From positions 1 to 64,000 of the forward strand of contig QPGO01000034.1 of the NCBI GenBank assembly GCA_008632985.1: 64,000 nucleotides of DNA, read 5' to 3'. The notes beneath the pieces are model-generated. The model ran no database searches, was not told the DNA's origin, and saw only the letters and a list, made by a program, of their open reading frames with translations. Origin of the DNA: Psammoneis japonica (Eukaryota). Both the position numbers and the translations under genes were made by a program. How positions within the stretch are numbered: the first letter of the stretch is position 1; the number at the start of each line of letters is the position of its first letter. This document shows positions 2,745-49,903 of the stretch, piece by piece.

Positions 2745-3698
2745 ATGAACGCCAGTGCACCAAAGGAGAACGAAAATCCCTTAGTCCACGAGGTTCGAAA
2801 TCAAGACAGAAGAGACCTGAAAAAGGCGCTTGGTTGGTCTCAAGTTGAGCGTTTGAACTTTGTCGGCAGCGACACCTACGACGATGCGAGAGACGGAGGA
2901 CCGATGCAGTTTTCGGCTACACGTTCATTAAACTCTTCCTTCAGTACAGAGGCGCGATCAATCTTTCTCGCTTTAACAGGTGCCGCTTCCACGTCGGGAA
3001 GTGGATCTGTTGCGCTTCTTAGAAACGCGGGCTTTTCGCTCCCGTCTGTGGAAGAGCTTTCGCCGTATCCTCCGCCGTTTCTGCGTCAACCAACTTTTGT
3101 ACCTGCAGCGTTAGCCGAGGAAGCGCCTCACGATCAAGCCCCAGAGCGACTCAGGGACAACTTCGATTCAGAAGAGGTCTTTGAAATCATTCGCAACATT
3201 CAGGATCCAGAACACCCCCTGACGCTCGAGCAACTCAACGTCGTGAACTTGAATCACGTTGAGGTGCACGATGATTTTGACCAAGGTTTCTCTGAGACTG
3301 TATCATCAGATACAGCTCAGCAAAAAACAAAGTTGTCATCTGTTGATGTTCGGTTCACGTGAGTGAGATAGCGATGGTGCTAGTTCCGGCTTGAAAGTGT
3401 CGGTTGAGTTGTTTATCTCACACGTGATCGAATTTTGCACTTTCTCAAATGCAGACCCACCATTCCCCACTGTTCCATGGCAACTCTGATTGGGTTGTGC
3501 ATACGAGTGAAGCTTCTTCGGTCTCTTCCTGCGAGATTCAAGGTGACCGTAAGAATCGAACCAGGTACGCATGCGAGCGAGAATGCGGTGAACAAACAAT
3601 TGGCTGACAAGGAGCGAGTTTGCGCCGCCTTGGAAAACGAGCATCTACTTGGTGTTGTAAATCGTTGTATTGAAAATGGAATGAAAACCAGTGTGTGA
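2745..3698 (+). CDS. CIA2: Cytosolic Fe-S cluster assembly component 2 (MIP18/FAM96 family); exons 2745-3358 and 3455-3698
   Basis: Motifs [51 protein letters not shown] and [30 protein letters not shown] intron at 3359-3454 joins the frames. Confidence 0.95.
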
Positions 3699-3953
3699 TT
3701 GCACATGCGTAATTTAAAACAACATGCAGTCACATAATACTCGTCATCCAAAGATTCGCGCAAAGTCCCATACCTTTGACGATAAACTTCCAAGTGTTGC
3801 TTAGCAGGAAATTGCTATTGGTGTATGTAAGCGACAGACAATCAGTAGCAGATGTTGATGTACGGCATGCTATGCAAAGAAGAAGAAGACATGTCGACTA
3901 CAAACAAGTAATGTTGATGAGGAGCGTTTTCAATCGTGTTTAATTTAGTTCTT

Positions 3954-6588
3954 TCATGATGGATTATCTCGCCATAAATGCAGTCCGCCAAACATTGGTT
4001 TTGGGGAGCATATGTTGGTGTTAATGTCCCCTTGTCCTAATCGACCAGAATTGTCGCCACAAGACAGTACGCTGCCTGAGGCTGTAACAAACACAGAGGA
4101 ATCGTATCCAGCGCAAGCATGCATCACACGAACACTAGATGATTCGGAGCTCGACACCTTTCTCGCGCCCGGTAGGGAATGGCACGAGTCCATTGAAAGT
4201 GCAAGATCGTTCTCTGAAACGGAACGACAATTCCTAATGCTTGAATCCAGCTGGCTTGAAAGTTGTATATCCACAGGTCGAGGCGACCATTCAACAACAT
4301 CATTGACACATGATTGCGCTATATTCTCAGAGGCGGTCTCGTCAGATCGATTTTCTTCGTTCACACATGCTTTCGGGGAACTAGTATATCCCAGCCTGTT
4401 GCCGGAAGCATTGCCCCATGCATAAACCTTTCCGTCTCGTGATAAGGCGACTGCGTGTCGAGCTCCGACACTCACAGATGCGATTTCCATTCACTAAGTC
4501 CGTATGGCCGTCAGGGAACAAAAGGCTCTTGGCTCGGTCGATTTCATAATTGCTGGACCACGCCCAAGTAACCCATCTTCGCTCGTCCCAAACGATAGAC
4601 ATCGTCCCGTTGAAGTTACAATAAAAGTGCACTTTGGTCCTAGCGCTACATGCGACGGATACTCGCCATGCACCTGTTCGTTTGGCGAGTGATAAGGAGC
4701 TGACTTGGCTGACAACGATTCATCTCCACCATCGAGTGATTGTAGCTGCTCCCAATCTTCATTGGAAGGATAAAATGATAGCTTTCGCACGACGCTTGGT
4801 GTACCAACGTTGTGGCTACGACGTGGTTTCGACCCCGTGCCATTCATTTTCGTCTGCTTTCTATTCTCTTTAGTATCAGCAGACGTACTTGTTTTCCTCC
4901 TCGAGTCATCTATCAAAGACATTTCATCGACTAGATTGTGTGGTCCTAGAGCACCATCGCCTGCAAAACCCCATGTGTAAAGTTCAATAGCACCAGTAGC
5001 ACGCCTAACCAACGCAGCCGAATGTTGCTCAGAAGCGCTTATTGCAAAAATTCCCGGTGTAGGCCCTCCTGAGGTTCCAGGCCACACACTGCAGTGAAGT
5101 GCGACACGTCTAGGCAATGGGACATCTTCTTCTTGGTCTTCATTCGCTGCGCATGCGTCTTTCACAACAGGGTTGACCAGTCCAAGTTTCATGCAATTAT
5201 TGCGACCAAAGCCGTACATTTGATGGTGATAAATGAGTTCAGATGGATCGGCAGTGGTTGAACTTGTTGTTGATTGGTCTAAGCTTTCGTCGTCGGTTCC
5301 GATTATTCTGGGAGGTGAAGAAACTACTCGAGACATTTCGACAAAAGAGTCACGCGTTGCGGCGTTTTTGCGCACGCTGCTCATTCGTCTACCGTCAGTG
5401 TTTACAACTACCAAGGAATGGTCCACTCCGGCTGCACATGCAATCGCTTTCCCTCCGTTTTCAAGTAGCGGGGTCACTATTGTTGGCGATGTGACGAATC
5501 CTTGGTTTTCGTCTTGGGATGATGATGTTCGCCCGATGCCAAGTTGGCCGTGATCATTGAGACCAAAAGAAAACAACAACGCCTCCTTTGATATGAGAAG
5601 AACATGAGATCCTAGTGGATGCGCAGAAACCTGTTTGATGGATATTTGCGCCAAAGACGAAAGAAAAGTTGGAACACCGTGTATCACCATCGGAGGAATA
5701 CTGGGGATCCAGCTGGCCGGAGTCTCCCGATCGAACTTGGGACTGGTTCGATATCGCCACCGAAACACATGGGATCTTTCGTATCCCTGCTGGAATCATG
5801 ATCTGGCGACGGTGTTATTGATGCATCCGACCCATCTGGTATGCTTAAATCTGTTCTTTGAGTTTGCGATTCGTTCTTTTCTCCTTCCAGTACAGCAGCC
5901 AGGTACGACGGTGATGCCATTTCTGTCTCTTCTTTTGACCGATTCCGTTCCTCTGAACCGGGTATCATATCGTTTCCGTTGTCCGCAAAGTGAGAGTAGT
6001 CAAAGCTAGGCAAAGGAAAGAGGTTGTCGCTTTTGCCGTCGGGGCCCAGCTGGTCCTGAAATGAATCTCCATCTGCATTAATTGGTGGTTTTGGCGAAAC
6101 GGGGACCGTGGAAGAAAGCGAGTCCGACGCCGATTCTTGTGCTACATTATTTTGTTTGGGTCTAACATCTGATTCTGGTACATCTGACGTCTCTCCTTTT
6201 CCGCCAAGAAGGCCGCCTCGTACATGCCTGTTGGCGACATCGAGTGATGCGTAGTCAGGAGCGCACAGATTCAGTACGGAGCTTTGATTCAAGTTCTCAA
6301 GACCACACCACAATAAATCAGAGTCATTCTCGTTCTTATTTTTCCTCCGTCTTCTTTCTGGCGGGATCATGTATGCCTGTGAAGACTTTCGGCACCGGCT
6401 CACCAGCACGTCGCCTGTCGCAGATAACAACACAGTTTCAACTTTGGACATTGCGACGCCTCCTGAAAGCTTAACGGTGGCGTCAAAGGCTCATCGGAAC
6501 GGGGTGAAAGAGGAGGATGCGGTTGGATTGACGGAGGTATTGCGGTAGTCATCGCGTCGCCAGCAGCTCTCTTTGACTTTACAACCAT
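3954..6588 (-). CDS. RCC1-repeat (beta-propeller) protein, read across several probable assembly frameshifts
   Basis: RCC1 blades FSFGLNDHGQLGIG, ACAAGVDHSLV, VSVGARHAVALSRDGKVYAWG..GNRLG and ACAGYDSSVFVTASGSVLSCGDNSGRLGQG, spread over ORFs 6400..6588, 5684..6451, 4494..5768 and 3954..4490. Confidence 0.85.
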
Positions 6589-7242
6589 AGTGAGACTGAA
6601 GCTTCGCCAAACTTTAATTCAACTCTCTGAGAGCTTTAAAATGAAACGTTGCGGCGGTGGTGGAGCTATTGTGGTTCACTCCCTTTTGGCGCTGGCCTTG
6701 TGTCATTTATCTGAAGCGTGTTGATCTCGTCGACGGCGGCGCTCTTCTTGAGGTCTTCTTGGTTGATGCTGTGGCCCGTTGGCATCACCTTTCATCAGTC
6801 GGCGAAACAATGCTCGGAAAACTTTTCATTCATGAAAATATTATGTTTAGACTAAAAATCGAAGATCTATATCACTTTTTGAACTTAAAGACATCTTATA
6901 TCTTTAATATAAATTATTCAATGAAAGCCGTTGAGATCATTAACTGTTATATGTGCCTTAATAAGGTAAAAAGTGAACATCCGTTAAATATTATATTAGA
7001 TACAAGGTTCATAATAAAAATTTGAAAGGCGAGCTTCACAAGCTGTCGTCACAACATCATCCTTTCCTCTTCGCTTCTGCCGCCCATGCCATCCCTTCTG
7101 TCTCATCATTCTTGCTTGGATCGATAGTGGGTTATGGGTTAGGTGTTACCGTGTAGGTGTCATCCCGCCCCGATGCCGATTGCTAATCACCCTAAATAGT
7201 CTCTGAGGGTTGTTAGAACATCGAACATCAGTCCTGCTTTTG

Positions 7243-8429
7243 ATGAAGTCTTCCATCCACCCAGCATTTTTTGTGCCAGCTTCTCCCTCGCCGCCCGGGC
7301 TGAAGGCTACTCTTCTTTTTTCAGTCCTCTTGCTACTTCGTGTTGCTCTTCCCATCGATGCTTTAGTTTTCCCACAAAGAATCACTTCTTCAACGAGGGG
7401 AGGCCCAGGACCTTCTCACGCCCATCATATTGGGAATCATAGGTTGTGCGGATCAACTCATAATGTAAACCCCGACCGAAATTTTCTGAGAACGTTCTGC
7501 AATCACAGTATCCCAACTGGGAAGGGGACGACATTAGATGGACACGCAAGCTGCGACGACGCTTCAAGAAACTGAACGGGCGGTCGCTTTCAGCACGATC
7601 CATGCTGGTATTTCTGAATGTTACTTTTTTCCTGTATCAGGTGATCAATGCTACGTCAAACATTCGGCGTCGCTATCCACAGTATTGGCCTAGAGATGCC
7701 CTTGCAATTGTTGTCGACGTCATTTCTGGCCGCTCAATTACAGGGCCATTCACAATGGATTTTATTCACTCCACATCTTTGTCAAAGTACCAGCCACATC
7801 GATATCTAACAGCCGGCTTCCTCCACGGTAGCATAATTCACCTTGCCGTGAATCTCAACGTACTGCTCGGACTGCCAATGTGGTTGGAATCAGGATTGGG
7901 CTGGCCTCTCTACTTGACAACTTATCTCATTTCGATCATTGTAGGAAACGCTGTTCATCGAAACCCATCATCGCTTTGTGTTGGAGCAAGTGGGGGAATC
8001 TGTGGCCTCTACGGACTCATGTTTACAGCGCTACAGAAAATGGGAAACAAAACAGGAGTTTCCAGCATCCTCCGAAGTATGATCGTGCTTGTTTTCACTG
8101 GTTTCGTATTTGAGAACATTAGCAATGCGGGACACGTGGGTGGCTTCCTTGCCGGCTTAGCTGTGGGCTATCTCTGTGGGCCTGGATATCGAAAGAGCTA
8201 CAGCATGCGAAGAAAATGGAGTTTGGAGGTGGATGAGGCTCCCGCGGACTATCGTCAGGCCATGGGATTTGGAAATACGCCAACAAAAAGAGCGCTGATT
8301 CCGGTTCAATTCGTTTGGGTTGCAGCCGCCTTTGCAATTCTTTCCCAGCCTAGACTGAGGTCTATTCCAAAGGTGGTGTTGCGGGGCTTTCTGCACCCCG
8401 GGTCGCTTGCTGGTCCGAGATACATTTGA
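7243..8429 (+). CDS. Rhomboid-family intramembrane serine protease with N-terminal targeting sequence
   Basis: HLAVN (HxxxN), GASGG (catalytic Ser) and SNAGHVGGFLAG (catalytic His) in ORF 7602..8429. The hydrophobic N-terminus starts at ATG 7243 and joins via a frameshift near 7500. Confidence 0.88.
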
Positions 8430-9866: not shown

Positions 9867-10013
9867 CGTAATGCTCTTCTCTCGTGTTTTTGTGGTGTCG
9901 TGTTGATGGAGTTTGGTCAAGGGGTGAAAAGCTGGGCGACGGATGGAAAAGGTCGAAAAAAAATGGCGCGCTCCGTCTGTCCATCGTAGCGATTGCCGCG
10001 CCAGAGAAGATCC

Positions 10014-10247
10014 AGTCACGACTCAACGTCATTCTGGTCGCATCTCACGACTACAACCCAGACTCAGATTTTCTCTTCGAAATAATTAGCTCATCACAAA
10101 ATCGATTCAAACAGAAGCAACGACATTCGTCATAATTTCTAGACAACGACTTTCAACAAGCGTCTGTTTACCTCTGTCGCTATTCATATTGCTGCCAACC
10201 TCCGAGGTCTTGTCCATCCTACTCAGCTGCAGGACTGCATCTCGACT
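10014..10247 (+). repeat. Copia 5' LTR (AGTC...GACT)
   Basis: Direct repeat of 17022-17255 with 6 substitutions. Followed by a PBS candidate, (t)ggttgcagagacc. Confidence 0.95.
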
Positions 10248-10409
10248 GGTTGCAGAGACCAATTTACGCGTTGACGAGAGCTCCTGACCGAGTCATCGTC
10301 ACGGACGCTTTCGGTTTTTGATTTTGAAGCAAACCCGGGAAATGGCTGAGTCTCTCTCGCTTCTCTCGTCTTCACTCTAACAAGAACCTCCCATGCTGCA
10401 CTCTCCATC

Positions 10410-13400
10410 ATGGCTGCCATCGATCCAGCTGTTCTGGCGAAGGCGTTTGCCGATGCAATGGCCACCAACGCCGCGGCGACCGCTCCTCCGGCTCCAACCA
10501 AGCCGTTACGTGGTGGAATTCACCCAACCCACGGGGTTTACATTGGTGGTTCCAAACTCAACAACAACTGCGAACAATCCAACGACAGAACCTGCCGACT
10601 CGCCTCTCAGCGCCGTCATCCCAAGGCTCTCGACTCGATAGAACGATCTCTCCGCGATCAACAAGCTTCCGCAATGACTTCCAAGTTCAACGGTTGACTT
10701 GAGATTTCGGACGGTCCCATCAACGAGCTTGACAAGGACCATTTCGTCAAGACCATTCGAGATCCAGCAGAAGCCCACGGTCAGCAGACGCACTGCCATG
10801 TCAAGGACAGCGACGACAAGGTTCAATGCATCTTCGACCATCTTCACGAGTTTGCTGTGACCGATCTCGTGAACGAGTACACGGTCAGGAAAGCAGCCAC
10901 CGATGATGCCAAGTGCGACGAGATCGAGCTCGACGACATCGGGCTCTCTCAACTTCTCGTTCACTCAAGAATCACCAATGCCTTTCGCGAGAAAATCGAG
11001 ACCAAGTTCAACCATCTTTCGGACTACCAAGACTACCCTGGATCTGTTCTATTCATGATGGCTCTCGACACTTGCAACACCAGTGCTCTAACGGACATTG
11101 AGACGGCTGAGAAGCAGCTAGAAGACCTCAGTTTGGTTGACTGTCCCGGCGAGGATTGCATGGACTTTGCCACCGAAGCTCTTCGCATCGTGAAAATTGT
11201 GCAGACCGACTGCGCGCTTCCGGCGATTACAAGCTCCAAGCCGCTCCACAAGATCTCCTCTGCGTCCTCTGAACACTTCAATCGCCGCGTCTACAACAAG
11301 CTTGACGACGTCAAGGCTGTGGAACACAAGTGCCGCCTCAAGAATCCTGCTGACATCGTGTCCGACAGCGATCACAGAACGCTCGGACCGGTCGGCATCA
11401 TTGCGTGGATTCAAGAGCAACACAATGAACTCGTGAAGGACGGGGAATGGCCTGCATTAGTCGCCAAGCTACCCGAGAGTAATCTTTCGACTACGGATGA
11501 CCCTGGGAAGACGAAGCACTGTTGTGGTTGCGGTCTCGAGGGGTGCACCAAGAAGACGTGTCCGAAGTGCAACGCCAAACCGCCGCGCGACGATCCTCCT
11601 CCCAATCCGCCGCCTGCAGCCGACCCTTCCAAGAAGAAGAGGCGATCCATCGCTGCCTGGCGCACTAAATTTGACGGAGAAACGAAGAAGGACAAGAATG
11701 GCAAGGAATGGAAGTGGTGTGCCACGTGCAAGGCGAAGGGTGCCGACAAACCTGGAATCTGCCAGCAGCACTCTACCGCGGAACATGCCGACGACCGCAG
11801 GCAACCTCCCAAGGAGACCCCAGCAGGGAATTTGTCTTCCGTTGCTGATCCGGACAGTGGCGTGCCCATGGGTCCGCCCGCTCAGACTGCCAAGGAACCA
11901 GAGGGAGACGAATCCGACCCCAACGAGTTGGTTTTCACGGGAATGTGGTGCGCGGCTGCGGATCCCGTTGCCGACCCGGATTTCTGTTCCGCCCCTGTTG
12001 CCACTGCAATTGTTGTTACTCCGGCTTCTTCGGCCGAGAGGGAGAGCGATGCAGTCGTTAGCACTGAGGTGGTTTGCATCGAAACGAGCCCACCTGTGCT
12101 CACCTCAGTCGTGGATCCAGTCGTGTCTCCCATCGTGGTTGAGACTGTCACTCCCGAAGACGCCGATGACTTCTACGAATGCTCCGACGCTTTCTCTACC
12201 TTTGAAAACGAACCACCGGCTATTGAGTTGTTTCCGGCCTCGAAGCTGTACTCTGTCAAGCATCCAGATGAGTTCTTTGACGCTCCCGCACATTTGACGG
12301 ATGTGCTGTCAGACGACACCAAGTTAGATCTCATCCTTGAACACGACGTACACTTTGAAGACGCATGCTACGACTTGCCTCCGTGTGTTACGTATCGTGG
12401 CTTCGATTTCTACGATCCAGAGGTCCTGGATACGGATGATTGTCACGAGGACGTCGAAGACGAGCCCACTTCGCGTCGCTCACTCTTGGGTCGAGTCAAG
12501 CCATTCACATTCTGGCTCGCCGCCATGTTTTGGGAAACGGTGCTACATCTTTGCTTTGCTCCGATCCCATGCATCCCTCGAGCTCTTCGCCGCCAGCGCA
12601 AACTCCCAACTTTGCACGGGTTTCCAGCCTCCTGGATGGTCCCATCCGTTGCAGTGATGGCATGGTCAGCAGTTTGCGCCGGTCAACAGCCCGAGCATCC
12701 ATTCTCGAACGCACCAAGTCGTTTTTCGACCGCTGGCTCTCAAGTCTGCCACATTGTGGAAGAGCTAGATGACCGGATAGTGTTAGATACGGGGTCACTG
12801 TTCGAATGTCACAGGATCAAAGGCACGCAAGTACTCACCGAGTTTGTCGCGCGCCATCCGTCACACGCACTGAGCACTCGTCTCAAGGCCTGCTGGGAGA
12901 GCCTGGAAGTAGCTGAACGGTCTGATGCGATAGACGAATCAGCCTTCTTTGACACCCATGAGGAACTGGAACCTCTCGACGACCAGAAGCATTTCTTTGA
13001 CGCTCTTGAGGACTTCAGCCCGGATTTCTTCCGGTTTGACGAGCTCTGTCTGCCGCATCATGTCGTGGACACTGCCCATTTTCAAGATCCTGTGGAACTG
13101 TTGGAGGAAGCAGGTGTTAGACCAGTCGTCTATAATGCCTCCACCATCCAACTACTCACCGGACAATCACAAGCCGACCTCCTTGCATCCGATCCGCAGG
13201 CACTCATCGGTCTGTCGGACGAGGCTCTCACGGTCGTCATGGATGCTGGTGCCACGTTAGTCATTGCCCCCGACAAAGATGATTTTACGGGGCCTGTGAC
13301 TGTTCCCAAGAAACCCTTGCAGATCAATGGGATTGCCAACGGTCTTGCCATCCAGGGTGCCGGTCCGGTTGCGTGGGTGTTCACAACGCCGAGTGGGGCT

Positions 13401-16400
13401 GCCATCCAACTGAACACCATGGCATGCTACGTCCCTGGAGCCCGTCAGCGCCTGCTGTCGCCTCAACGCCTCTTCAACGAAGAGAAGGGGATACGTGGGA
13501 AGCATGAGGGCGATGAAACCACTTTCCGTTTACACATTGACGGGACAGGCAAGTTGGTCGTGCCATGTCATCCATCAAGCCACTTGCCTGTTGCGTCGAT
13601 GACCAAGGGCGTGTCTGCCGCTCCTCAAGTGAACCTTCAGGTCCTTGACGAGGAGAATCAAAACCTCACGGCAGGCCAAAAGCTTCTTCTCGAAATGCAC
13701 GCCCGTTTTGGCCATTTGAACTTTGGTCGCGTCCAAGCACTTCTCCGTGCAGTTCCGTTCCTTTCGAACCGTTTCAAGTCCACAGCGAAGTGTGACCACC
13801 CAAGATGCGAGGCATGCGAACATGCTAAAGGTCACAGACGCTCTCTTGGATCTACTCACAAGTCGACAGTCCCTGAACGCGACGGGGCCCTTCGAGCTGA
13901 CCATCTTCGACCGGGTCAGGCTGTCAGCGTTGATCATTTTGAGTCGCGCCTTTTAGGCCGCACCTTCGACTCTTATGGCAAAGCCACGTCCAAGCAATTC
14001 AAGGGCGGTTGCATCTTTGTCGACCACGCCTCTGGCTATGTCCAGGTCGAGCACCAACTGGGTTTCTCCGCTGTTGAGACGACATGCGTGAAGCAAGCGT
14101 TTGAGAAACATGCTTTGGACCACGGGGTCATCGTCCAAGAATTTCTTACCGACAGTGGCGCTTTCAAGGCCAACGCTTTTGTACAACACATGCGAGAACA
14201 TGAACAACGTCTCCGTTTTTGTGGAACCAACGCCCATCATCAGAACGGCGTCGCAGAGCGGGGCATCCGCAGCATCTCCAACATGGCGAGAGCGATGTTG
14301 CTTCATGCATCAATCCACTGGAAGGGGGGAATTGACAGCTCCCTATGGCCCATGGCAGTTTCTTGTGCCACGCACATCTACAATGTCACCCCAAATTCCA
14401 AAGGACATTGCCCAGCGGACATTTTCACCGGTTCGACAGTGCCAAGACATCGGTTGCGCGACATTCACACATGGGGATGTCCAGCGTACGTACTTGACCC
14501 GACCCTCGCTTCCGGGAAGAAGCTCCCGCGTTGGGAGCCTCGCACTCGTCGCGCTTTGTTCGTGGGACTCAGTGCCATCCATTCCAGTGAGGTTCCTTTG
14601 GTCCTCAATCTTCAAACTGGAAGTGTTGCACCTTAGCATCATGTGGTCTTTGACAATCTCTTCACTGCCGTGCCATCAATCGAGAGGGAGACGGATCCAC
14701 CTGATCACTGGGAACACTCATGCCTCAACCAATCGACATGCATCCCTCTGGAGAAGGATCAGGCAGTTCATTTACACGATGAGTGGCTTGCCCCTCCAGA
14801 GCGTCAACGCAGAGAACGAGAACCAGCCAGAGCAACACGCATTCGCGGGCATTTTGAGCCCACTCCATCGATTGCTGTGCCGGATTCACCCACTTCTCGC
14901 GACGACGTTGCCGATCGAGTCGCACCTGCGACTCAGCAGCCAACGCCACCAGTCCCACCTGCGACTCAAACTCCTACAGACTCTACGGACTCTACGCCAA
15001 TTCAGCCACCTGAACCTCAAGACAGTGACGGACTTCCGCCACCCGAAGCGCCGACGGAACCAACAGCTCCTCCCCCAGTCGAGACACCTCCTGTGACGAA
15101 TCCAGAGGGAGTGCCAGGGCTGCAACGGTCTTCACGGTCAACCAAGGGACAGCTCAACTCTGCCAAGTTTGTAGATGAGGTCTGCTTCAGCTCCGTCGAG
15201 GAAATGCCGCTGCCGATCGGACACGAGGCTCAACTGGCATATCTGGCGACTCTCGAGACGGATTTGGACAGTGGCACCATCAATGTCGGCGATCCACGAG
15301 CCTACGCAGCTAGCAAGAAAACCAAGGACCCTGACATGCCTTCGTCACACAATGCTCTGAAAGGTCCGGACTCCGACGAATGGATTGAGGTGATGAAAAT
15401 TGAAGTCAACGCACTCATGCATCGTCGAGCCTGGAAAGCAGTCGAGCGTCAGCCGCATGTGAATGTACTTCCAGGCACATGGGCACTAAAGCTCAAGAGA
15501 CTCCCAGATGGAACCCCTCTCAAGCATGAGGCCCGACACTGCGTCCGCGGTGATTTGCAGAAAGAAGGAGTCGACTGCTTCGAAACCTGCGCGCCGGTTG
15601 TGCAATGGTCCAGTGTCCGACTCATGCTCACTACGGTGTTAAAGGAGGGATGGACTGCACGACAGGTGGACTGTGCCACAGCCTTTTGCCAAGCTGATGT
15701 CGCCGAGGAAGTTCACACAACACCGCCGAAGGGATTTGCGCCAAGGTCGGGACTCAATGTGGTTCTCAAACTTTTGAAAGGACTGCACGGCCTAAAACAG
15801 TCTCCCAAGGGCTTCTACGAGAAGTTACGAGCTGGTTTAACCGAGCGCGGATGGGTGCCTTCAGCCATAGATCCCTGTTTGTATTTCAAAGAGGGCATGA
15901 TGTGTGTGGTGCATGTCGACGACACCGTTTTTGCTGGAGCTTCAGCTGAAGCTCTAGAAGCCGAAATTCGCAAGTTAGGAGTCTCCGACGACGAACATCG
16001 CCACGCATTTGAACTTAGAGACGAAGGAGAAGTCGGTGACTTTCTCGGCATCAAGATCGAAAAGCTCTCCGAGGGTCGATTTCTACTCACTCAACCCGGT
16101 CTAATTGACAAGGTCCTGCGCACCGCACAGATGCAGGATTGCAATGGAGCATCTACTCCAGCTCTACCTGCGGCTGTTGGTGCCGACACGGACGGCCTGC
16201 CTTTTGATGAACCCTGCGATTGTCGCTCAGTTGTTGGAATGTTGATGCACTTGGCAGCGAACAGCCGGCCAGACATTGCACATGCCACACATCAAGCAGC
16301 TCGATTCTCGTTTGCGCCCCGAGCATCCCACGCTGCTGCAGTGAAGCGGATGCTCCGACACCTCAAAGCAACTGCTGCTGAAGGTCTCATTCTCAAGCCT

Positions 16401-17000
16401 GCGCAAGATCATCGAGTTGATTGTTGCGTCGATTCTGACTTCGCGGGGTTGTTTGGTGTGGAAGATGGTCAAGACCCAGTTTCTGTCAAGTCCAGGACTG
16501 GACACCTTGTCTGCTACGCCGGCTGCCCGCTTGTCTGGGTGTCCAAGCTACAGACTCTTGTGGCATTGTCGACTGTGGAAGCGGAGTGTGTCGCACTTTC
16601 TCAAGCTGTGCGCGATCTCATCCCCATTCGTGAAGTTCTCAAGGAGCTCAACCACCACGCACTCGGAAAGTCTGGCCGCCAAAACCCAATCACGACTCAC
16701 TCCAAGGCTTTTGAGCTCGCAACCCAAGGCACCGATGACTCGCCTGTAGAGCAGAATGTCCCACCTGCGTCCGTTGTGCACGAAGACAACTCCGCGTGCC
16801 TCAAGTTCGCACGTGTGCCCAAGTTGTCTCCGCGAACCAAACACATCGGCATCCCGCACCACTGGTTTAGGACCAAAGTCGAACAATTGGAGATCGACAT
16901 CCAACCTGTCAGCACTCTAGAGCAACTAGCCGATCAGTTCACGAAGGGACTACGGACCGATGCGTTCCGTACGGCTAGAAAGGCTCTTATGGGCTGGTAA
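10410..17000 (+). pseudogene. Copia gag-pol polyprotein, one frame with two in-frame stops (TGA 10695-10697, TAG 14634-14636) and many Tyr->His/Cys changes
   Basis: Protease VMDAGA; integrase HARFGH..CEAC, VSVDHFES, LTDSG and QNGVAERGIR; RT LHGLKQSP and VVHVDD; RNase H VDSDFAG, EAECVALS, HEDN and LADQFTKGL. Confidence 0.93.
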
Positions 17001-17021
17001 GCTCTCTCGGTTGAGAGGGAG

Positions 17022-17255
17022 AGTCACGACTCAACGTCATTCTGGTCGCATCTCACGACTGCAACCCAGACTCAGATTTTCTCTTCGAAATAATTAGCTC
17101 ATCACAAAATCGATTCAAACAGAAGCAACGACATTCGTCATAATTTCTAGACAACGACTTTCAACAAGCGTCTGTTTACCTCTGTCGCTATTCACATTGC
17201 TACCAACCTCCGAGGTCTTATCCATCCTACTCAGCTGTAGGACTGTATCTCGACT
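17022..17255 (+). repeat. Copia 3' LTR
   Basis: Preceded by the PPT and followed by the TSD GATCC. Confidence 0.95.
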
Positions 17256-17536
17256 GATCCCCACGTGCGTCGATCTTCAACACATGGTGACGTAGCACAG
17301 CCAATCAAAAGGAGTTTACGAAGAACACCATCGACAGGCATCAAAGACATCCGCCGATGCGAGGCACACGATGTGAGAAAGAACAACAACAACCATCACC
17401 CATCACTGCTCTAGACTACTACAGTACCGGTACTTCTTGCCATCAAGGGACCCACATCAAGCGAGGGCCAAAAAACAACCATCGTCTACAACTTGTACAT
17501 TTCCAATTATTTTTTGTGTTGTTATCGTTCTTCATA

Positions 17537-18476
17537 ATGCTCTGCGCTCAAAGAATGCTGCGCTGTTCAACAAGGCGACCTGATGCTGTGAGGTCAAGAG
17601 CGGCGGGTGCGGCTAAAGCACGTCAGCCTCAATGCTCCTTTCGCGGGATCTGTTCGACGTCCGAGCGACAGGTAAGTGCACTCGGAATGTTCTCTGCTCA
17701 GTCAGCAGTCAGCAGCACTCTCCTGTTTGAGTCTCATGATGTTTGCCACTTTCAATGTTCGTCTTCAGAATGGTTCTGTCTCTCAAGCATCGGTTCAAAT
17801 CAGGCATACTGATACTGGTAACGAAGGTGGCGAGAAAGTCTATAAAAAGGCGTTTATGCGGGAATTCGATGAGGTATGTACAGTGGTGTCGTGTGCTTTC
17901 GTCTGATCCGGTTGTAATTCTCATCATGATGTTGTGATCTTCGTTTCCGACTTGTGTTTGCAGAATGAGTCCTTTCGCAACTCCATGGCATACTCTCTCG
18001 CCTTTGCCGATTCAGAAGGCGCTCACCACAAAATGGCTTTTGCGAAACTTCCTACTGATCTCATGCGAGAGCAGCTTAGCATGGCGGCTCTCTTTCAATC
18101 CGAGTTTGATCATCGCGCACTTCCCCACACGTTGGAAGAGGCTCTGCGTCCTTCGAATCGAGCTATTGTCATTACAGAGACCAAGAGGCCTTTCAGAGTT
18201 GTTGATGTAAACGAAGCTTGGGAAGGCTTGTGTGGCTACTCTTTTCTAGAAAGCCAGGGAAAAACCTTGGGCAGTTTGTTGCGTGGACCCGAAACGGATC
18301 CAGCTTCAGTCACTGCTCTCATGTCTCAATTGTTGCGAGGAGAGGAAGCTGGAACAGTTCTCACAAACTACAAAAAAGATGGAACCAAGTTTCAAAACCA
18401 TATTCGTGTAGGTCCACTGATGAACAACGAAGGAATGCTGAGCCATTATGTTGGAGTGTTGCAAGAAATTCATTGA
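17537..18476 (+). CDS. PAS/LOV-like domain protein with Arg-rich presequence; exons about 17537-17671, 17769-17873 and 17964-18476
   Basis: AIVITE..PFRVVDVNEAWEGLCGYS..ESQGKTLGSLLRGPET...LTNYKKDGTKFQNHIRVGPL...HYVGV matches the PAS/LOV pattern. Two phase-0 GT-AG introns. Confidence 0.85.
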
Positions 18477-20249: not shown

Positions 20250-20697
20250 GCAGGGTTGGGTCTTTTGTTGTTTGAGTGACTCTGCGTGAAGTTCACGGTA
20301 GAGTCGGTGTTAGTAGCGGAGCCCTGCTCTAGAGTGTACTTTTAGAATCATCACTGCATGAAAGTCTTCACTCAATTCATGTCCGTAGGGCTTTTATGAG
20401 CTCGGAGCTCCCTCTAGCCTCTAGCTAGTAGAGAGAGAGACCTTACCAGACGGCACGGTACCACTGTATCGTGAGTGACGAGCTATGGTTCAGTACGCAA
20501 CCGCCGTAGAATTCCACGAAGGGAACGTTCAACGTGCACCGCACTCACACACTTTCAACTTGCGGCCTAATAAGAGCGAGAACTTCGCAGTCCAGTTGTT
20601 GGGTGTTCGTACGTATTGTGTCTCTTCGAAAGTACAATTACTACCGGTGCAGCGGTCCTTGGGGCATTGGAAGTGAGCAGTATACGGCAAGAGAGAA

Positions 20698-22126
20698 ATG
20701 ACAGACCTTACCGTCTATGCAGAGGCGCTGATTGCAACAGTGGCAAGAGCGTTTTACGACGATGATGCCATTTGTTTGATTGATGTTTTATTGAGAGACA
20801 AATTTCTCCGAGACGATGACATGGCACCTCGGTTGTCGCTTCCGGCCAAACAGTTGCGAAGGACGCTCCAATTCTTACAGGAAGAGCACTTGGTGAAGTT
20901 CGAGCTGGTGGATGACTTGAGTTCAGGTGGAAGTCAGGCTACCAAGTTTTGGTACATTGATTATAATCATGCCGTCAACACCATACGATTGCGCATTCAT
21001 CTGTTGCAGAGAAAACTTGAGAAGGATGAAATGGCTGCGCGGTCAAGCAGCTTTTACCTTTGCCCTGGATACAAAGAAAAGCGATGCAATGGACGATACA
21101 CTGAGACCGAAGCGCAGCAGGTAGTGGATCTAGAGACGGGCTTATTTCTGTGTCAGGAGTGTGTCAATGACTACGCCAACAACCCAAGTCCGCCATCAAA
21201 GGAAACGTATACGCTGCGCTTGGTGGATAACACAGCCGCCCTCAAGCTTGCTGTAGATAACATGCGTCGAGTTAAGGTACAGCTTTCGACGAAAATGGTT
21301 GGGAACCACCAGCTTCGAGCCGGTATCTTTGACCTGCTGCAGAAGGTTAGGGTCAAAGGAAAAGGACCTCTTACGTCCAACCTTCCTTCAGAAAACTTTC
21401 AATTGGGTATCGGCTCAAAGCGATTGGCGGGGACGGGACGAACTGCAGGCAATCTGGCAAAGAAATTGGCACAGCAGGGCGTCGTTTCCAGATCGGAATC
21501 GGGCTCAATTTTGGGCGGCGCAAAACGCACAGAAGAGGGGAGCGGCCCGTTGTTTTTGAAGAATGCAATGGGACAGCAAATTCAACTCAAAGTGGAAAAA
21601 GGCGGTGGTGCAAGGGCAAACCTTCTGGCGACCAACCGACGGCGCCGAAGAAAGCTTATGGACGCTGCGGCCACAAGAGCCGGAATCCACGTGCCTCTTT
21701 ACTGGAAAATGAGAGAACAGAAAAAGCGAGAAAGAGAGGAGAAAGACGGAAAAACCGGTGCAAAGAAGGCACGTACAGAATTCGCAACTCTTGACTTTTT
21801 AAAGAATAACATCGGGCGCAAGGATGACTACGAAGAAAGACACGACCTACAAAAGCAAAATATTCAAGAAGAGGTAGTTTGCGACGACTCAGACGAAGAG
21901 ACCGATGCTCTCGTTTTGATTGATGATGTAGACATCTTGCTATCAAAGACAGAGGAAGAGCGCCGAACGATTTTCCAGGCACAGTACAAGCTAGAAGTTG
22001 AGAGGACAGTTGGCATTGCTGCAACCGGAGCTCTACGAGACTACGGAGAACTCCAATCCTCCAACTCTTGTTGCGGACGATGGAGTCGACGAAGATTTCA
22101 TTAATATCCCCTGGGAAGATGCATAG
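20698..22126 (+). CDS. TFA1: Transcription initiation factor IIE alpha subunit
   Basis: N-terminal winged helix (VARAFYDD..ICLIDVLLR..FWYIDYNHAVNTIRLRI) and Zn ribbon (CPG..C....FLCQEC). The acidic C-terminus DFINIPWEDA* (stop at 22126) is reached via a probable frameshift near 22030. Confidence 0.9.
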
Positions 22127-25100
22127 CTGCTATGAATTCAATGGTAGTGATTGTTCGCAATGCAATCCGAACGACGCCTGTGCATTCTGGAACAATGCGC
22201 CATCGTGTCTTCCCCTGGCTCTTGATTGGCCAAGGTGGCCAGTTTGAGAATTTCTTCAACCAGGCGGCTTTGCCCTACTCCTTGGCCTGGTGCAGGTGCA
22301 TTCCAAAAGAAGCTTGGCTCAGTCCATGAAAGCAACTGCCGCCTCGTCTCCGACATGCTTCCGGTGAGACTCGTCTTCTTCAACACGCCCCAAACACTCT
22401 CACACGAAAGACAAGGCGTCTGTAACAGTACTTACGATTCGGTCGCACAGTATGTGCATGGTGATAGTAATCAGATATGTAGTTCCCTTTAGGTTTACCT
22501 ATGTGATGTTGAAGAAAGCCATCTGTAGCTGTCGCTGATGTTGACAACTGTGCGATACATGTGCACCGTTTTTGTCCATAGGATTGCTTTCGTTTTCACA
22601 ACTACGAAACAGTCATGCTTGTGGATGAATCTAGAGTCCCATCTCCAGATCAGGCCAGATGCTGTGTTTAAATTGACCAGGTATGGAGAAACTCTAGCTA
22701 GCTTTGTGTCCATGTTAGAGGCCAAAATCACGTCAACAGAAGGGAACACAGCAAAATACAATGAAGGATGGATGAGGAGGGATTGTGTGACCTTTGGTGA
22801 CATGCACCACAATGACAACGTTTCACATAAATGCCACTTTTGTTCTTCAAAGGCCAGAGCAAATGACACTCTACTGCTCTCCAGCAGAAGCAGCTGCCTG
22901 GTGCTGCAGCACTCTAGAGCAGAGAGCCGATGAAACTCTACTCCAGCAGCCAAGTGAGTGCTGCAGCTTAAGAGTTGTGCATGAGAAAACAGCTTCAGAA
23001 CTGCTGAAGTGCCGTTTCTTTCCTTTCCATTGCAAAACAGTTTGAATTCCCACCACTGGCCTGCAGCCATGATTGCCAGGCAAGCATGAACCAGACCAGA
23101 AAGTTGGGGTTGTGTGAGTGCAGCAGTCAATGACCATTTCGTGTCCGTTGATCACCTTTGCCTGAGCACTTCCTGCATCCTCTCTTGCACGAGTCCTGGT
23201 TTTGACAAATTGATCCTGCAGTTGGACTCATTTGAGGAAAGTGACAATGCAACAAATTTTGTCAACAATGTGCCAATGCTGGCAGGTTGCATCATTGACA
23301 TTGAGTTCTTCAAGAAAAGATTGCTGGGTGGTGCTTCTCGCTGGCATCCCCATCATCCTGCATGCAATCCTCCTGGTGCAGCTTTTCAAGACCCCTTGTC
23401 AAACCCCAGCGAGTGTTTTAGATTTGAGGACAATGGTCATGATGAGAAGTCACTCCATTTCACAGTGGTGAGTGCAACTTTTGCTGTGGGTTTCTGCTTC
23501 CTTGTCATTTTGTGGAAGTTTGCCACTCTTCAGCAGCAGAATCAGATTCAACTCATCTGGCTTTCATGCAATTACACAACAGTCCTTGCTGAGCAGCAAA
23601 GATTGGCAAGCAACCTTCTTGAATCAAAGCCAGTTGACTCCAATGTTTCAAAGTCCCAATTTCATGCATCGTGTGTGGTTTCTGGCCCCTTTTGTCTCAG
23701 CTCTGGACACTGGCCTGCCAATTTGGAGGTCGTCACTTGGGTGTCATTTCCAACACCAACATTGCTGCTCATGTTGCTGGCAAGTCTGTTTTTGTGAACT
23801 GGTTCCTTGACTTTTCTTTCATTGTGTCCACAGCAAGGATGGGCCAAAACAGCAAAAACAACATTGCAGTTCTTGTCCTCATCTTTTCCAGCTTTTGGCC
23901 GCACCTCAAGTTGGTGTCTGGCCTGTGCTGTTCTTTCTGCCACCAACACAACTTGGTGTGTCAAAATGGGAGACAATGACTTTGCTTTGGCTTGATGTTC
24001 TCTCAAAGTTGTCAGTCGTTGACATGTTCTTTGCTGTCCTGCCAGCCATTGCAGTGCTCGACTTGTCATTTGTGCTGGCAGGCCCAACAAAAGGTTTTCA
24101 AACAAAGGCAATCCTTTTCATGTGAATCAGTGGTGGCACCACAGGGTCATTGGAGCTGGACAATGCAGGTGAAATGCTGAAAATGGTGTGCACAGGGATG
24201 GGATCCATCAAGAGTGGTGAGAGTGCAGAGATTCCCAATGGGGCTGCTCTTGTTGCAGCAACTCTGGAGCCATGCACATCCCACAACTGATGTGCACCAC
24301 CAACATGATTCCAAATCCATCACGTCACTTCTGCTTTCACCAGCAGTGTTTGAGGGAAGCATGGTGGTGACATGATTGCAGCCACCCTTGTGAGCAACTT
24401 GCAACAGCATGCTGCATTGGCTGTGTGTGGGGATGAGTGAGAAGAGAGAAGAGTTTTGGGGAGAGTGAAAAGAACAAGAGCAACAATTCACAATGATGAC
24501 AACAACAACAATGACAAACATGACTTGACTGTGGTGGGGACAATCCACTTTCCACTCTAGTGTGGTGGCTTTGACAAGGATGAGGCCCAACACCCAACAG
24601 GCACACTCCTGATGAGCATGCGGCAGGGCCTGGCCAGCTGGATGAGGCCATTGGCAGGTGTTTTTCACCTGTGGGCAGAGCATTTGAAAATGAGAAAGAA
24701 GGATGGGACTTCCCAGAGAATTGTGCACATTTTCCTGTGCAGAATTAGAGAGACCCATCAACCACACATGACTGCCAGCAGACCATTTTCAAATCCTTTT
24801 TTGAATGCCATGCATCCGGGTTTGATTCTGTTTCAGCACCATGTGGAAGCAACAGCAGCAAGGCAAACTGAAAAAGACTCAACTCTTGATTTCAACTTGC
24901 CTTTGGAGCAAAGTCATTTTCATCAATGATCAATGAGATGCGATTGCTCAACAGCAATGCAGCTGCTGCAAGAGTCTTCTGGGGTGGGATCCAGCTGAAG
25001 CTGTTGGGTGCCTTGGGCAAGACACATCATCACAATCAGCACATCAAAACCATGCAGTGTGCTCTCATGCACAAACAATTTGTCCTTGTTGTGGAGTCAA

Positions 25101-25584
25101 GTTCATGCAGTGACTTTCATTTTGCTGGCATCCATGGCTTGCAGGCAATGCCATGGAAATTGCACCAAAATTCAGATTGTTGGTCCTGCAATGTGAGACC
25201 ATGCAAAAGAGCCAAGTGTTTGCAAGTTTGAGAGTGAGAACAAGAGAGAAACAGAGACATTGCACAAAATGCAAAAGTGGCTCACCTTCAATTCATTCTC
25301 AGCCCTCCCCTTCCACACTTCATTTTGCAACTCCCACTGTTGTCATTTTAACACAAACAAACAAGTGCAAAGAAAATGCACAGCACTTGAAATGAGAAGC
25401 ATGCCGCTTCAAATGCTCTTTTCAAATGCTCCATTTTTTCCATTGTGGCAAAGTGCGGAGAGTCTTTCAACTCACCTCCTGGTTCTTGTTGAGTTTTTTT
25501 CAACTCGCCTCATGAACCCATGCTGAAGCACACAAGCCTCTGGCACAGGCAAACTGAGAATTTGCCCCCATTTGAAAGACACGA

Positions 25585-26080
25585 CCTGCCCACAAATCTG
25601 CCACCATCCTGAACTTTCATGAACAGTCTAATTCCACCACCACCCTAAAAATTCAGGACTGCAGCGGCCAGCAGCAACCACCATGGCTTAAGTTCACAAC
25701 TGCAATTCTGTCATGTCACGCAACACTGTGATGGTGTCCAACCACCTGAATTTGCCACCATCCTAAAAATTTGCCACTGGCTTAAATTCATGACTTGCAC
25801 AAATCCGCCACCATTCTAAAAATTCACAACTGACCCTGATTCACAACTGGCATAAATTCGCCACCATCCTGCACAATTTACGACTGGCCTGAATTCACAA
25901 CTGGTCCAACTCCGCCACCTGTCATGTGGCAACAGGACCCTAAATTCATGACTGGCCCAAATCCACCGCCATCCTAAAAAGTTCATGACTGGCCTGAATT
26001 CACAACTGTCCCAACTTCACCACCATCATAAAAAGCTCATGACTGGCCTGAACTCACAACTGCCCAAACTCTGCCACCTG
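25585..26080 (+). repeat. Degenerate array of short repeats (aaattcacaactggc / aattcgccaccatcct), possibly subterminal repeats of a DNA transposon
   Basis: Two short motifs alternate many times over about 500 bp. Confidence 0.75.
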
Positions 26081-27439
26081 TCACTGTGATGGAGGTGGAT
26101 GAGAAGAGGAAGAAAGGACAGAAGCAAGCTTTGGAGATGCAACACAACATTTGCAAGCATTGCTGCAACACAGACATTGTGCCACCAGGTGCATTTGGCG
26201 AAATCCCAATGAGTGTTGTGGGATGTGTTGGAGGTGGCCGTGTGGAGCACTTGACAAATCTGAACCTTTTTGAAACTGCAATGGTGGCACATGCAACAAC
26301 AAAGCATGCCTTGAAAGACAGCAGCATTGACAATGCCGGCAATGCTGCAATGTTGGTGGGTGACTTGGAGCCAGAGGAGGATGGTGCCATGTGTGTTGGA
26401 AATTCAAACAGAACAAAAACTGATGTCTTGTTTCAAATGCAAAGTCAGCATTTGACAGCTCAAAGTGCAAAAATCAGGATCTTGTTTGTGCCTCATTGAC
26501 AGGTGTCATGGATGTGGTGCACTTCTTTTTTGACAGCAGCACTGCAAGAAACTCAGAATCAGAATCATGTGCAGCAGTCACGGCAGCATCTTGATGCAGC
26601 AAGGCTCTTCCAATCACTTGGCAATGTCAATGATGCAAAAAAGGAGATGCAGCTGCATCTCAAAAAGTCTCAAGTTAAGGGCAACAAGAACAAATTGCTG
26701 GATGTGAGTGCCATTGATGTGTGTGCATGTTGTTGTTGTTTTGTCTTCATCAAAATGTTGTTTCTCCTTTTTCTGCCTGTCACGTCTGAAAGGACATGAA
26801 GAGGATCAAAATGCTGATCAAGCAAGGGAGTCATCAAAGAGGATGGTGCAAGGAATGGCAAGTTTTGCCATTGTTGTTTTGTCATCATTGAAATGTTGCT
26901 CACTCCTTTTGCCATCATCTGAAAGGATGCACAAGAGAATCCAGTGGCTGATCAAGCAAGGGGGTCACCAAAGGATGCAGGTCAGGATCCGGGCTCACAA
27001 TTGGTCCGCTGTGGCTTTTGTGATTGCCCCAGGCCTGATGAGCCTGTTGGGACAAGAGATGAGGCAAAACACCATGATTGCAATTGTGGGTTTGGTTTGT
27101 GGTCATCAAACAAGTGCTGGAACTTTGAAAAGTGTCATTGTTGCTTGCACAGTGTTGGGTGCCATGCATGCCTTGACAAGTGCAACATGACATTGTTGAC
27201 TTGCAGCCACCAAGATTGTTGCGGCAATGTGCAACTTCATTTTTGCATCAGAGACTTGCATGATTCACAGGAAGTCCAGATGCATGGACAATGGATGGCA
27301 ATGCACATCACATTAGAAAGCAAGGAGTGACACCAGGAATGGGAACTCTTCCATGAGTGTTTGCATTTGCAGCTGTCCCGCCAGCCCCTGTCAAATTCAC
27401 TCTGCTGCAGGCATTGCTCAAGAAGTGTTTGGACTTGTG

Positions 27440-28330
27440 GGACAATCAATGACAATGACATTGTCTGCAGAATCAGAGCTTTTTTGTGGTGCTGCTTTTG
27501 TTTCCATGGCCCTGGAGAGCAGATCCAAATCCGCACTCAGACATCCAACCAATGCTGCAATTGCGCACCAAAATCCCAATGTGTTTTGCTCAAGTGGGCA
27601 TTGCTCCAGCAATGCTCAGAACAGTGGGACAACAAATGGTGGTGACAACATCTGCAGAACAAGCACTTTCCAATGGTGTCACTTTTCTTTCCATGCCTTG
27701 AGTGCATCCAATTCTGCTTTGAGACATCCAGATGGACCCACATTTGCGGACAACAAATGGCGGTGACAACATCTGCAGAACAAGCATTTTCCAATGGTGT
27801 TGCTCACATTTCCATGCCTGAAGCACATCCAATTCTGCTTTGAGATCTCCAGATGGCCCCGCATTTGCACGCCAAAATCCTGATGCGATTTGCTTAAGTG
27901 GGCATTGCTTTGACAATGCTTGGAATTGTGGGACAACAAATGGCAACAACAACATCTGCAGAATGAGAGCTTTTCAATGGTGTTGCTTGTGTTTCCATGC
28001 CTGCAGCAGATTCAATGCTGCTTTTGAAATCTCCAGATGGCCCCGCATTTGTGCGCCACACAATCCCAGTGCTTTCCAACAGTGTTGCTTTTGTTTTCCA
28101 CACCCAAAGCACATCCAACTCTGCTTTGAGATCTCCACATGGCCCCGCATTTGCGCGCCAAAATCCCAGTGCAATTTGCTTAAGTGGGTGTTGCTTCAGC
28201 AACACTTGGAATTACGGGGCAAAAAATGGCAATGACAACATCTGCAGAATGGGAGCTTTTCAAAGATGTTGCTTGCATTTCCACACCCCATGGATCCAAT
28301 TCTGTTTTGGGGTCTCCAAATGACAACACA
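27440..28330 (-). pseudogene. Decayed tandem-repeat coding sequence, LRR-like
   Basis: tgacaacatctgcagaa and gagatctccagatggccccgcatttg each recur 4-5 times. The minus strand gives pieces such as LKQIALGFWRANAGPSGDLKAELDVL..GMET...LEKLPFCRC. Confidence 0.5.
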
Positions 28331-31200: not shown

Positions 31201-31418
31201 CGCCACTCTCTACTAGGTGACATTGCACGTGAACTCCGCGCGCGTCGCGCGTACTACTACCGTACTTACTACCTATCCATGACTCCAGTCTGCCTGGTCT
31301 GCTTGGTGTTTGGTGTTGTGTGTTGCAATATTATAAGGTGTTGTGTCCGCCATAGCCATTACAAATTACAAGTCCTCGTGTCTCAGCGGTCTGTTGATCC
31401 ATTTAAAAATACGTTAAA

Positions 31419-49882: not shown

Positions 49883-49903
49883 CTCGCTTCCCCAATTGAG
49901 ACG

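Follow-up and report, generated by a model that had tools for sequence, protein, structure and literature searches.

TpA-directed mutation and loss of tyrosine codons in a Ty1/copia retrotransposon of the diatom Psammoneis japonica

Results

A Ty1/copia element with an open-looking frame

The window analyzed here is a stretch of 64,000 nucleotides from the diatom Psammoneis japonica (contig QPGO01000034.1 of assembly GCA_008632985.1, positions 1 to 64,000 of the forward strand). It holds a Ty1/copia long terminal repeat (LTR) retrotransposon that has lost conserved tyrosines through mutation of the dinucleotide TpA to CpA or TpG, and this element and its mutations are our subject. The parts of the element are listed below, with observed/expected dinucleotide ratios (obs/exp) where they apply; ORF stands for open reading frame and RT for reverse transcriptase.

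10014-17255, plus strand: Ty1/copia LTR retrotransposon, with LTR pair, target duplication and RVT_2
10009-10013, plus strand: left copy of the target-site duplication GATCC, the same 5 bases standing directly 3' of the 3' LTR
10014-10248, plus strand: 5' LTR, 234-235 nt, with 9 TpA and TA obs/exp 0.50
10698-14633, plus strand: gag-protease-integrase ORF, 1312 codons, Tyr 1.14%
14634-14636, plus strand: in-frame stop TAG between the upstream and downstream ORFs, which share one frame
14637-17000, plus strand: RT-RNase H ORF, 787 codons, stop TAA; Tyr 0.64%, His 4.07%, Cys 2.41%
15429-16166, plus strand: RVT_2 domain, copia-type RT (PF07727, E 1.2e-33, ORF residues 265-510)
17013-17021, plus strand: purine run adjoining the 3' LTR, by its position a candidate polypurine tract
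17022-17255/17256, plus strand: 3' LTR, 234-235 nt, with 11 TpA, 2 lost relative to the 5' LTR
17256-17260, plus strand: right copy of the target-site duplication GATCC

The LTRs are direct repeats with 97.4% identity, and between them runs a single frame of 2100 codons (10698-17000) with one internal TAG and a natural TAA at its end. The RVT_2 match scores 117 bits against a cut-off of 31.6. The domain order is that of a copia element: upstream of RVT_2 lie the protease D-x-G motif (13242) and two weak matches that miss the curated cut-offs, one to gag_pre-integrs (E 1.6e-4) and the other to SH3_retrovirus (E 3e-3). The upstream ORF aligns lengthwise with long relatives that carry protease and integrase; the integrase Pfam rve gave no score at E<=0.01 in the frames of the element. 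A protein search returned 147 relatives at E<=1e-10, the best at 53-61% identity, and the only named relative among the best matches is from the diatom Fragilaria crotonensis (52% identity). Diatom clades of copia elements have been given the name CoDi (PMC2806351).

Altered motifs of the copia enzymes

The motifs below show changes at sites that are conserved to differing degrees in relatives. State counts per site were taken from an alignment of the RT-RNase H part with 90 relatives.

13242-13250, plus strand: protease active-site motif D-A-G (GAT GCT GGT); D-T/S-G in relatives
15522-15536, plus strand: KHEAR (AAG CAT GAG ...), its E position being K in 76 relatives and R in 9
15573-15596, plus strand: DCFETCAP, its two Cys positions being Y in 55 and F in 32, and Y in 80 and F in 8 relatives
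15783-15800, plus strand: LHGLKQ (CTG CAC ...), its His position being Tyr in 90/90 relatives
15912-15923, plus strand: RT catalytic motif HVDD (CAT GTC GAC GAC), YVDD in relatives with Tyr in 90/90
16221-16253, plus strand: CRSVVGMLMHL, its first residue being Y in 88 relatives and its His position Y in 73 and F in 16
16569-16589, plus strand: RNase H motif STVEAEC, STMEAEY in relatives (Met in 85, Tyr in 89/89)
16779-16790, plus strand: HEDN, its His position being Y in 51, H in 19 and F in 15 relatives

A sequence-only reading of this stretch had pointed to these motifs as copia motifs altered by TA>CA or TA>TG, and we found every one of them in place, with the codons it gave. The His of HEDN and the His of KHEAR (relatives F 41, Y 23, H 20) stand at natively variable positions. 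At place 16779, the first base of HEDN, all other family copies read T, giving TAC (21 contigs, depth 3638.1/3638.1); here and below, copy number and family-wide spectra rest on contigs from a single DNA run of this organism. In the protease, D-T/S-G is found in 14 of the 15 long relatives aligned there, the remaining one having DTC, and the change from GAT ACT to GAT GCT is a TpA>TpG that spans the codon border.

The activity of retroviral-type enzymes depends on the D-T/S-G and Y-x-D-D motifs. Because invariant residues have been lost in the protease, RT and RNase H, these three enzymes are most likely dead. The acidic residues of the integrase, as read from the translation, are apparently retained.

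Systematic loss of tyrosine and depletion of TpA

We took as conserved-Tyr columns the 19 alignment columns in which Tyr occurs in at least 60% of relatives. The element of the window (the query) has Tyr at 2 of these, His at 8, Cys at 6, and Phe, Trp and Ile at one each, that is, His or Cys at 14 of 19. When the 90 relatives were treated in turn as pseudo-queries, the count of His or Cys was 0 in 46 of them, 1 in 30, 2 in 13 and 3 in a single one; the loss of conserved Tyr in the query is far beyond chance. No His>Tyr or Cys>Tyr change was found in the query at conserved columns.

The systematic stripping of Tyr that the sequence-only reading had proposed is real: Tyr accounts for 0.64% of residues in the RT-RNase H ORF and 1.14% in the upstream one, whereas relatives average 3.34% (minimum 2.45%) and the pol of a neighboring gypsy element has 3.48%. 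Six host frames have 1.85-6.48%, and the frame in the left flank, with 5 Tyr in 208 residues, is not stripped.

The same reading had called for the share of non-synonymous change that TA>TG/CA explains. The query departs from relatives at 89 of 426 conserved columns (21%), and 65 of these departures are reachable by any one base change. Reversion of CA/TG to TA undoes 33 of the 89, whereas reversion of CA/TG to CG, which would mark CpG decay, undoes 4; the leading directed models are TA>TG (23) and TA>CA (10). Despite departures at 21% of conserved columns, the 2100 codons contain one stop and no frameshift.

In the DNA, TA obs/exp is 0.28-0.30 in the two copia ORFs versus 0.56-0.61 in the host flanks. 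For the RT region alone the query stands at 0.33, below each of 80 related metagenomic loci (median 0.645, minimum 0.35); one of the two search patterns of this metagenomic survey includes a Tyr, so that mutated copies are under-sampled. The only partial signature among the 80 loci is that of L069, a sediment metagenome contig (match 141-878) with His or Cys at 4 of 7 conserved Tyr and TA obs/exp 0.45. Another metagenomic relative, L012, has His or Cys at 3 of 18 conserved Tyr.

LTR pairs of two elements show mutation after integration

A second element of the window, unrelated to the copia element, provides a further LTR pair.

49592-54491, minus strand: Ty3/gypsy element with RVT_1, RNase H and rve

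A single template gives rise to both LTRs of an insertion, and any difference between them has therefore arisen in the genome. All six differences of the copia LTR pair set TA against CA or TG, four being losses in the 5' LTR and two in the 3' LTR, and there are no non-TpA changes between the copia LTRs in 235 nt. Counted by site, changes of TA type affect 6 of 26 TA site-copies versus 0 elsewhere. Each of the four TA sites lost from the 5' LTR belongs to the final 5 of 13, a clustering with p 0.007, post hoc. The gypsy LTRs (49592-49882 versus 54201-54491) differ at ten sites, again all TA versus CA/TG, and the losses all run in one direction (23 TpA versus 13). Across the two elements, 16 of 16 LTR-pair differences are thus of TA type; the chance of this, if transitions fell at random, is 1.2e-4 for copia and 1.7e-6 for gypsy. 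The process acts on integrated DNA.

It also hits both strands: read on the coding strand, the 8 cases of Tyr>His are T>C and the 6 of Tyr>Cys are A>G; since the two are about equally frequent, transcript editing alone cannot account for the pattern. Among surviving TpA in the copia element, RTAR (R for purine, Y for pyrimidine) numbers 10 versus 45 for YTAY, and similar skews are seen in host coding DNA.

TA is the ancestral state

The window also contains the remains of a third LTR of the copia family, which allows a three-way comparison.

47344-47627, minus strand: third copia-family LTR, 86% identity, with ~40 nt of internal sequence adjoining

That TA is ancestral had been concluded from typical copia motifs, and four independent lines now agree on it: relatives, sister copies, three-state LTR sites and net TA loss. 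Relatives carry Tyr, Thr, Met, Lys or Ile where the query holds the product of TA>CA/TG. Sister copies in the same organism have TA at several of the places where the window has CA or TG, and the other product at five CA/TG doublets. In the three-way LTR alignment, two sites read TA, TG and CA across the three copies; at these TA is ancestral, because only TA is one step from both of the others. Relative to the 80 metagenomic relatives, finally, the RT DNA shows a net loss of TA and gain of CA and TG.

The third LTR is itself nearly TpA-free (3 TpA left, obs/exp 0.17), and polarizing by it is informative at 2 of 6 sites. It lies at the edge of a TpA-free domain. Place 17202 has TA in the 3' LTR, and TG in the 5' LTR and most other copies.

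Regional confinement and sequence context

The process is confined to transposon and repeat domains. In addition to the copia element, four domains are strongly depleted.

951-2550, 22151-31250, 34451-47650 and 54951-59650: TpA-poor domains, with 3-8 TpA per kb, down to 0-4, versus ~40-50 in host DNA

In these domains CpG obs/exp is 0.03-0.25, and CpA and TpG stand at about twice expectation. Three pairs of internal repeats within them have 256, 205 and 246 mismatched bases, of which 70, 42 and 62 respectively belong to aligned CA-versus-TG doublets. Open frames of at least 110 aa occur in all six phases; in 111 frames of at least 110 aa no transposon Pfam was found, only weak PDZ matches in one edge frame. 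Searching the window by tblastn with the gypsy pol and eight long relatives of the copia element brought up no matches beyond the copia and gypsy elements themselves. Diverged tandem or nested direct repeats with units of ~100-300 nt and 70-87% identity were seen at 25749-28348, inside the first TpA-free domain.

The gypsy element has a 1409-aa pol frame that looks intact (Tyr 3.48%, TA obs/exp 0.65, CpG 1.45). Its TpA loss is restricted to the 5' LTR (54201-54491; 10 of 23), which adjoins the TpA-poor domain on its right, and its interior is normal. The changes in this LTR come in strand runs of 1 CA, 4 TG and 5 CA. We considered transcription-coupled targeting as a general rule and rejected it, the gypsy 5' LTR being hit along its whole length and the interior untouched. 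An element-free contig matches the right copia flank without a difference over 17263-17500. TpA is low throughout this stretch of the genome (obs/exp 0.56-0.65).

Preferred targets are those in which the A is followed by a pyrimidine (TAY, on either strand), because the surviving TpA favor YTAR and are nearly never RTAY. Among 52 survivors in the two most depleted domains, 33 are YTAR and 1 is RTAY, against 124 and 204 of 671 host TpA (p 1.4e-11 and 5.4e-7). RTAY is also depleted in the copia interior (15 of 97, p 0.002). A pyrimidine follows the A in 42 of 49 inferred events, a count partly biased by the detection of coding events. For the LTR events only, the figures are 13 of 16 versus 69 of 128 unmutated targets (p 0.058), which is suggestive only.

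Copies of the copia family and age of the insertion

The copia family is a high-copy one: 2947 contigs fall on the element, and summed word depth is ~2800-8000 versus 60-78 on the flank. Variable places among the copies (n=269) comprise A>G 63, T>C 66, C>T 48, G>A 50 and transversions 42. The 34 best-supported events, drawn from 40 of the 269 variable places, include 17 of TA type, five CA/TG doublets among them. One contig lacks the element and connects 10013 with 17263 (depth 59.6; its shorter side has 33 letters, and 6 letters lie between), which suggests that the copia insertion is unfixed, that is, heterozygous or polymorphic. Taken with LTRs that differ nowhere outside TpA, this element-free contig suggests that the insertion is young.

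Discussion

A proposed sequence of events

We read the whole as a young copia element from a high-copy family that was TpA-hypermutated after integration and whose enzymes are most likely dead, and we give this reading a probability of roughly 0.8. In this reading, TpA in element DNA became CpA or TpG (A:T>G:C at TpA, on either strand) through a process working on integrated genomic DNA, confined to transposon and repeat domains and preferring TAY; the comparisons above show its direction, its TpA specificity and each of these properties. The codons exposed are both Tyr codons, which start with TA, and A-initial codons that follow T-final codons. The outcome is Tyr to His or Cys, Thr to Ala, Ile or Met to Val, and Lys to Glu, with no stop codons created, so that a frame of 2100 codons stayed open-looking while DTG turned into DAG, YVDD into HVDD, LYGLKQ into LHGLKQ and STMEAEY into STVEAEC. 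The suggestion that elements can be lost by missense in this way without stops is correct as logic: TA>CA/TG can only destroy TAA or TAG, or make TAA into TGA.

Several observations weigh against this reading. The majority of the departures at conserved columns, 56 of 89, are not of TA type; these reflect ordinary divergence, the relatives sharing only about half of their residues with the query. The relatives are 50-60% identical to the query, and hence the 'ancestor' is a distant consensus. The two natively variable sites, the His of KHEAR and that of HEDN, carry no proof alone, because His is native at each in about 20 relatives. The only stop codon arose by CA>TA, which is opposite to the proposed process: at 14634-14636 CAG became TAG, where 24 of the 25 long relatives carry Gln and the alignment of the other is faulty. 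Place 14634 reads C in all 7 contigs of other copies (depth 2069.5/2069.5), and the stop is private to the window copy.

Two further objections come from the LTRs. At four of the six LTR sites the third LTR has CA or TG, and naive parsimony would make TA the derived state. We read the CA/TG shared at these four sites as parallel loss, because the third LTR keeps 3 TpA and because the shared products fit the context rule. The LTRs are also much less affected than the interior, with TA obs/exp 0.50-0.60 versus 0.22-0.30, and 17 of 20 interior conserved Tyr codons have been lost versus 6 of 26 LTR TpA site-copies (p 6.7e-5); inside the element, TpA per 250 nt varies from 0 to 8. Because the interior is so much more depleted of TpA than the LTRs, either much of the interior damage came from a progenitor already mutated, which would have been copied through recombination, template switching or proteins acting in trans, or the LTRs were spared by a patchy process.

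Comparison with known systems

A 2026 preprint describes the TpA>TpG/CpA signature in integrated viral DNA, as measured in mutation-accumulation lines of Bigelowiella natans: of 231 new mutations in two such viral regions, 230 were A>G/T>C, every one of these 230 lay at TpA, and the rates were ~1000-fold above background (10.64898/2026.01.13.699255). Reverse-transcriptase and DDE Pfams were enriched among the TpA-poor coding sequences of that genome, and an ADAT2-like enzyme that deaminates adenine is the explanation put forward in that work (10.64898/2026.01.13.699255). As that study describes them, the mutations share much with those in our window: TpA>TpG/CpA is nearly exclusive, integrated nuclear DNA is the substrate, the changes are confined to foreign DNA with ordinary flanks, and the long-term footprint is low TpA with high CpA and TpG. 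The systems differ in that the targets in B. natans, a chlorarachniophyte (Rhizaria), are giant-virus and virophage inserts, whereas here they are LTR retrotransposons and repeats in a diatom (Stramenopila), and in that the evidence there consists of measured de novo mutations, whereas ours is comparative (LTR pairs, relatives, sister copies). The TAY/YTAR context, Tyr stripping, the catalytic motifs and the domains of complete TpA loss are found here and are absent from the main text of the B. natans study, which has no mention of diatoms or LTR pairs either.

Repeat-induced point mutation (RIP), known from ascomycete fungi, likewise hypermutates repeat and transposon DNA on both strands, its transitions keeping to one dinucleotide context, and inactivates the elements. 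Fungal RIP changes C to T at CpA, creating TpA and stops, whereas the process here is A:T>G:C at TpA, removes TpA and makes no stops. Where RIP would enrich TpA in repeats, the repeats here are TpA-depleted, and the direction is TA>CA/TG.

In animals, APOBEC3 edits complementary DNA (cDNA), giving G>A/C>T, and ADAR hyper-edits double-stranded RNA, favoring U before the edited A. Both kinds of editing precede integration and affect one strand, and the LTRs of one insertion stay identical. As here, clustered transitions cripple the coding capacity of retroelements; unlike that pre-integration, one-strand editing, the process here hits both strands (8 versus 6) and has left differences, all at TpA, between the LTRs.

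CpG decay of methylated transposons yields the same products, TpG and CpA, and is seen in the oldest domains of the window (CG obs/exp 0.03-0.25). The two are separable, the copia element having normal CpG (0.89-0.98) with TpA at 0.28-0.30, and CpG decay is a separate, slower layer. RT regions of four metagenomic relatives (L060, L076, L037 and L017) have CpG obs/exp 0.09-0.25 with TpA depletion that is only moderate (0.42-0.51). CpG decay occurs in other hosts without the TpA process.

Alternative explanations

One alternative concerns which base is attacked: the T in R-T-A would be oxidized or otherwise modified by an enzyme, giving T>C, instead of the A being deaminated in T-A-Y. Our data are blind to this choice, TAY being RTA on the other strand, and hydroxymethyl- or formyl-uracil mispair with G. 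ADAR and fungal ADAT-type mRNA editing are not known to prefer a pyrimidine after the A, and the preference seen here is unlike them. On the other side, the sole experimental study, that of B. natans, proposes adenine deamination and an ADAT2-like candidate, without an assay, and we regard thymine chemistry as unlikely but worth keeping in view. Editing of RNA or cDNA during retrotransposition (ADAR- or ADAT-like A-to-I, or deamination of minus-strand cDNA) would suit an interior much more depleted than the LTRs and the TG state that many copies have in common at some TAC sites. It is hard to square with LTRs made from one template that differ at six TpA sites only, and likewise at ten in gypsy, or with the nearly equal hits on the two strands (Tyr>His 8, Tyr>Cys 6); moreover, the most depleted domains have no recognizable retroelement coding content, and place 17202, with TA in the 3' LTR and TG in the 5' LTR and most copies, speaks for recurrent parallel hits and not for descent. 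We therefore consider such editing quite improbable as the source of the pattern.

If modified TpA in repeat chromatin were misread as C or G in sequencing or assembly, systematic miscalls would also leave an open frame with only TA-linked residues changed. An independent DNA run, however, contains 55% of the sampled 31-letter words of 13230-17000 in unaltered form, 800 of its contigs are at least 99% alike, and its word depth on the single-copy flank is ~60; three-state sites, CA/TG doublets and a graded TA loss of 30%-100% are not expected from miscalls, and the B. natans signature, as described, came from Illumina reads. An artefact is accordingly a very slim prospect. Equally slim is the chance that a copia lineage natively avoiding TpA, through selection or codon usage, acquired its His and Cys by ordinary decay. 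TpA is indeed under-represented throughout (0.56-0.65), and a few relatives have RT TA obs/exp of 0.35-0.45. Such a native composition nonetheless leaves the replacement of invariant catalytic Tyr, a query TA below that of all 80 relatives, and a frame with one stop and no frameshift in 2100 codons to be explained, and it is contradicted by LTR differences that are exclusively of TA type. Finally, RIP of the fungal type read backwards, with CpA/TpG ancestral and TpA the product of C>T at CpA, yields the same pairs of aligned states; the CAG>TAG stop is of this type, the outgroup LTR has CA/TG at 4 of 6 LTR sites, and diatoms encode DNMT4 enzymes related to fungal RID (PMC9998398). Yet it would enrich TpA, where repeats here fall to 0-4 TpA per kb, it clashes with Tyr in relatives at the His and Cys of the query, and the three-state sites need TA as the middle state, leaving us to give it next to no credence.

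Significance

Returning to hypermutation of integrated DNA at TpA, we infer that the process is an enzymatic defence, most plausibly adenine deamination in DNA as proposed for B. natans. In a literature search that took in diatom papers on transposons or methylation but not subscription journals, no account of TpA hypermutation in diatoms came up; as far as we found, this is the first sighting in a diatom and on retrotransposons of a process that was itself already described in B. natans. More tentatively, and with somewhat less than even odds in our estimate, diatoms may have an active RIP-like but adenine-directed DNA-editing defence with TAY specificity, aimed at transposon and repeat domains, disabling elements by missense with their frames left open, and fast enough to have acted on a still-polymorphic insertion, that would be old and widespread in SAR (Stramenopila, Alveolata and Rhizaria); the reason for thinking of an old, SAR-wide system is that the same signature occurs in a rhizarian.

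If confirmed genome-wide, the pattern would carry this hypermutation beyond one chlorarachniophyte into diatoms, which are major primary producers of the ocean, and beyond viral inserts to retrotransposons, and would point to a widespread defence without a textbook mechanism. Our comparison adds evidence on timing (post-integration), on context (T-A-Y) and on the effect at the protein level. The T-A-Y preference and the sharp domain borders offer handles on the enzyme and its targeting, and, should the SAR-wide reading be true, the enzyme would be findable by comparing genomes with and without TpA-free repeats.

There are practical consequences as well. LTR divergence overestimates insertion age: here it is 2.6%, all of it at TpA, and one element-free contig exists. 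From gene callers one must expect long pseudo-proteins poor in Tyr and, within TpA-free domains, open frames in every one of the six phases. A screen for dead elements could use Tyr/(His+Cys) and TA versus CA+TG.

Other features of the window

Between the copia element and the first long TpA-poor domain lies a host gene, whose relatives agree with the diatom origin of this stretch.

20677-22101: TFIIE-alpha, its best named relatives being in diatoms at 61-69% identity, with another at 83%

Directly to the right of the copia element is an open frame (17907-18476, plus strand) whose translation, judged by eye, resembles a PAS/LOV-type sensor domain.

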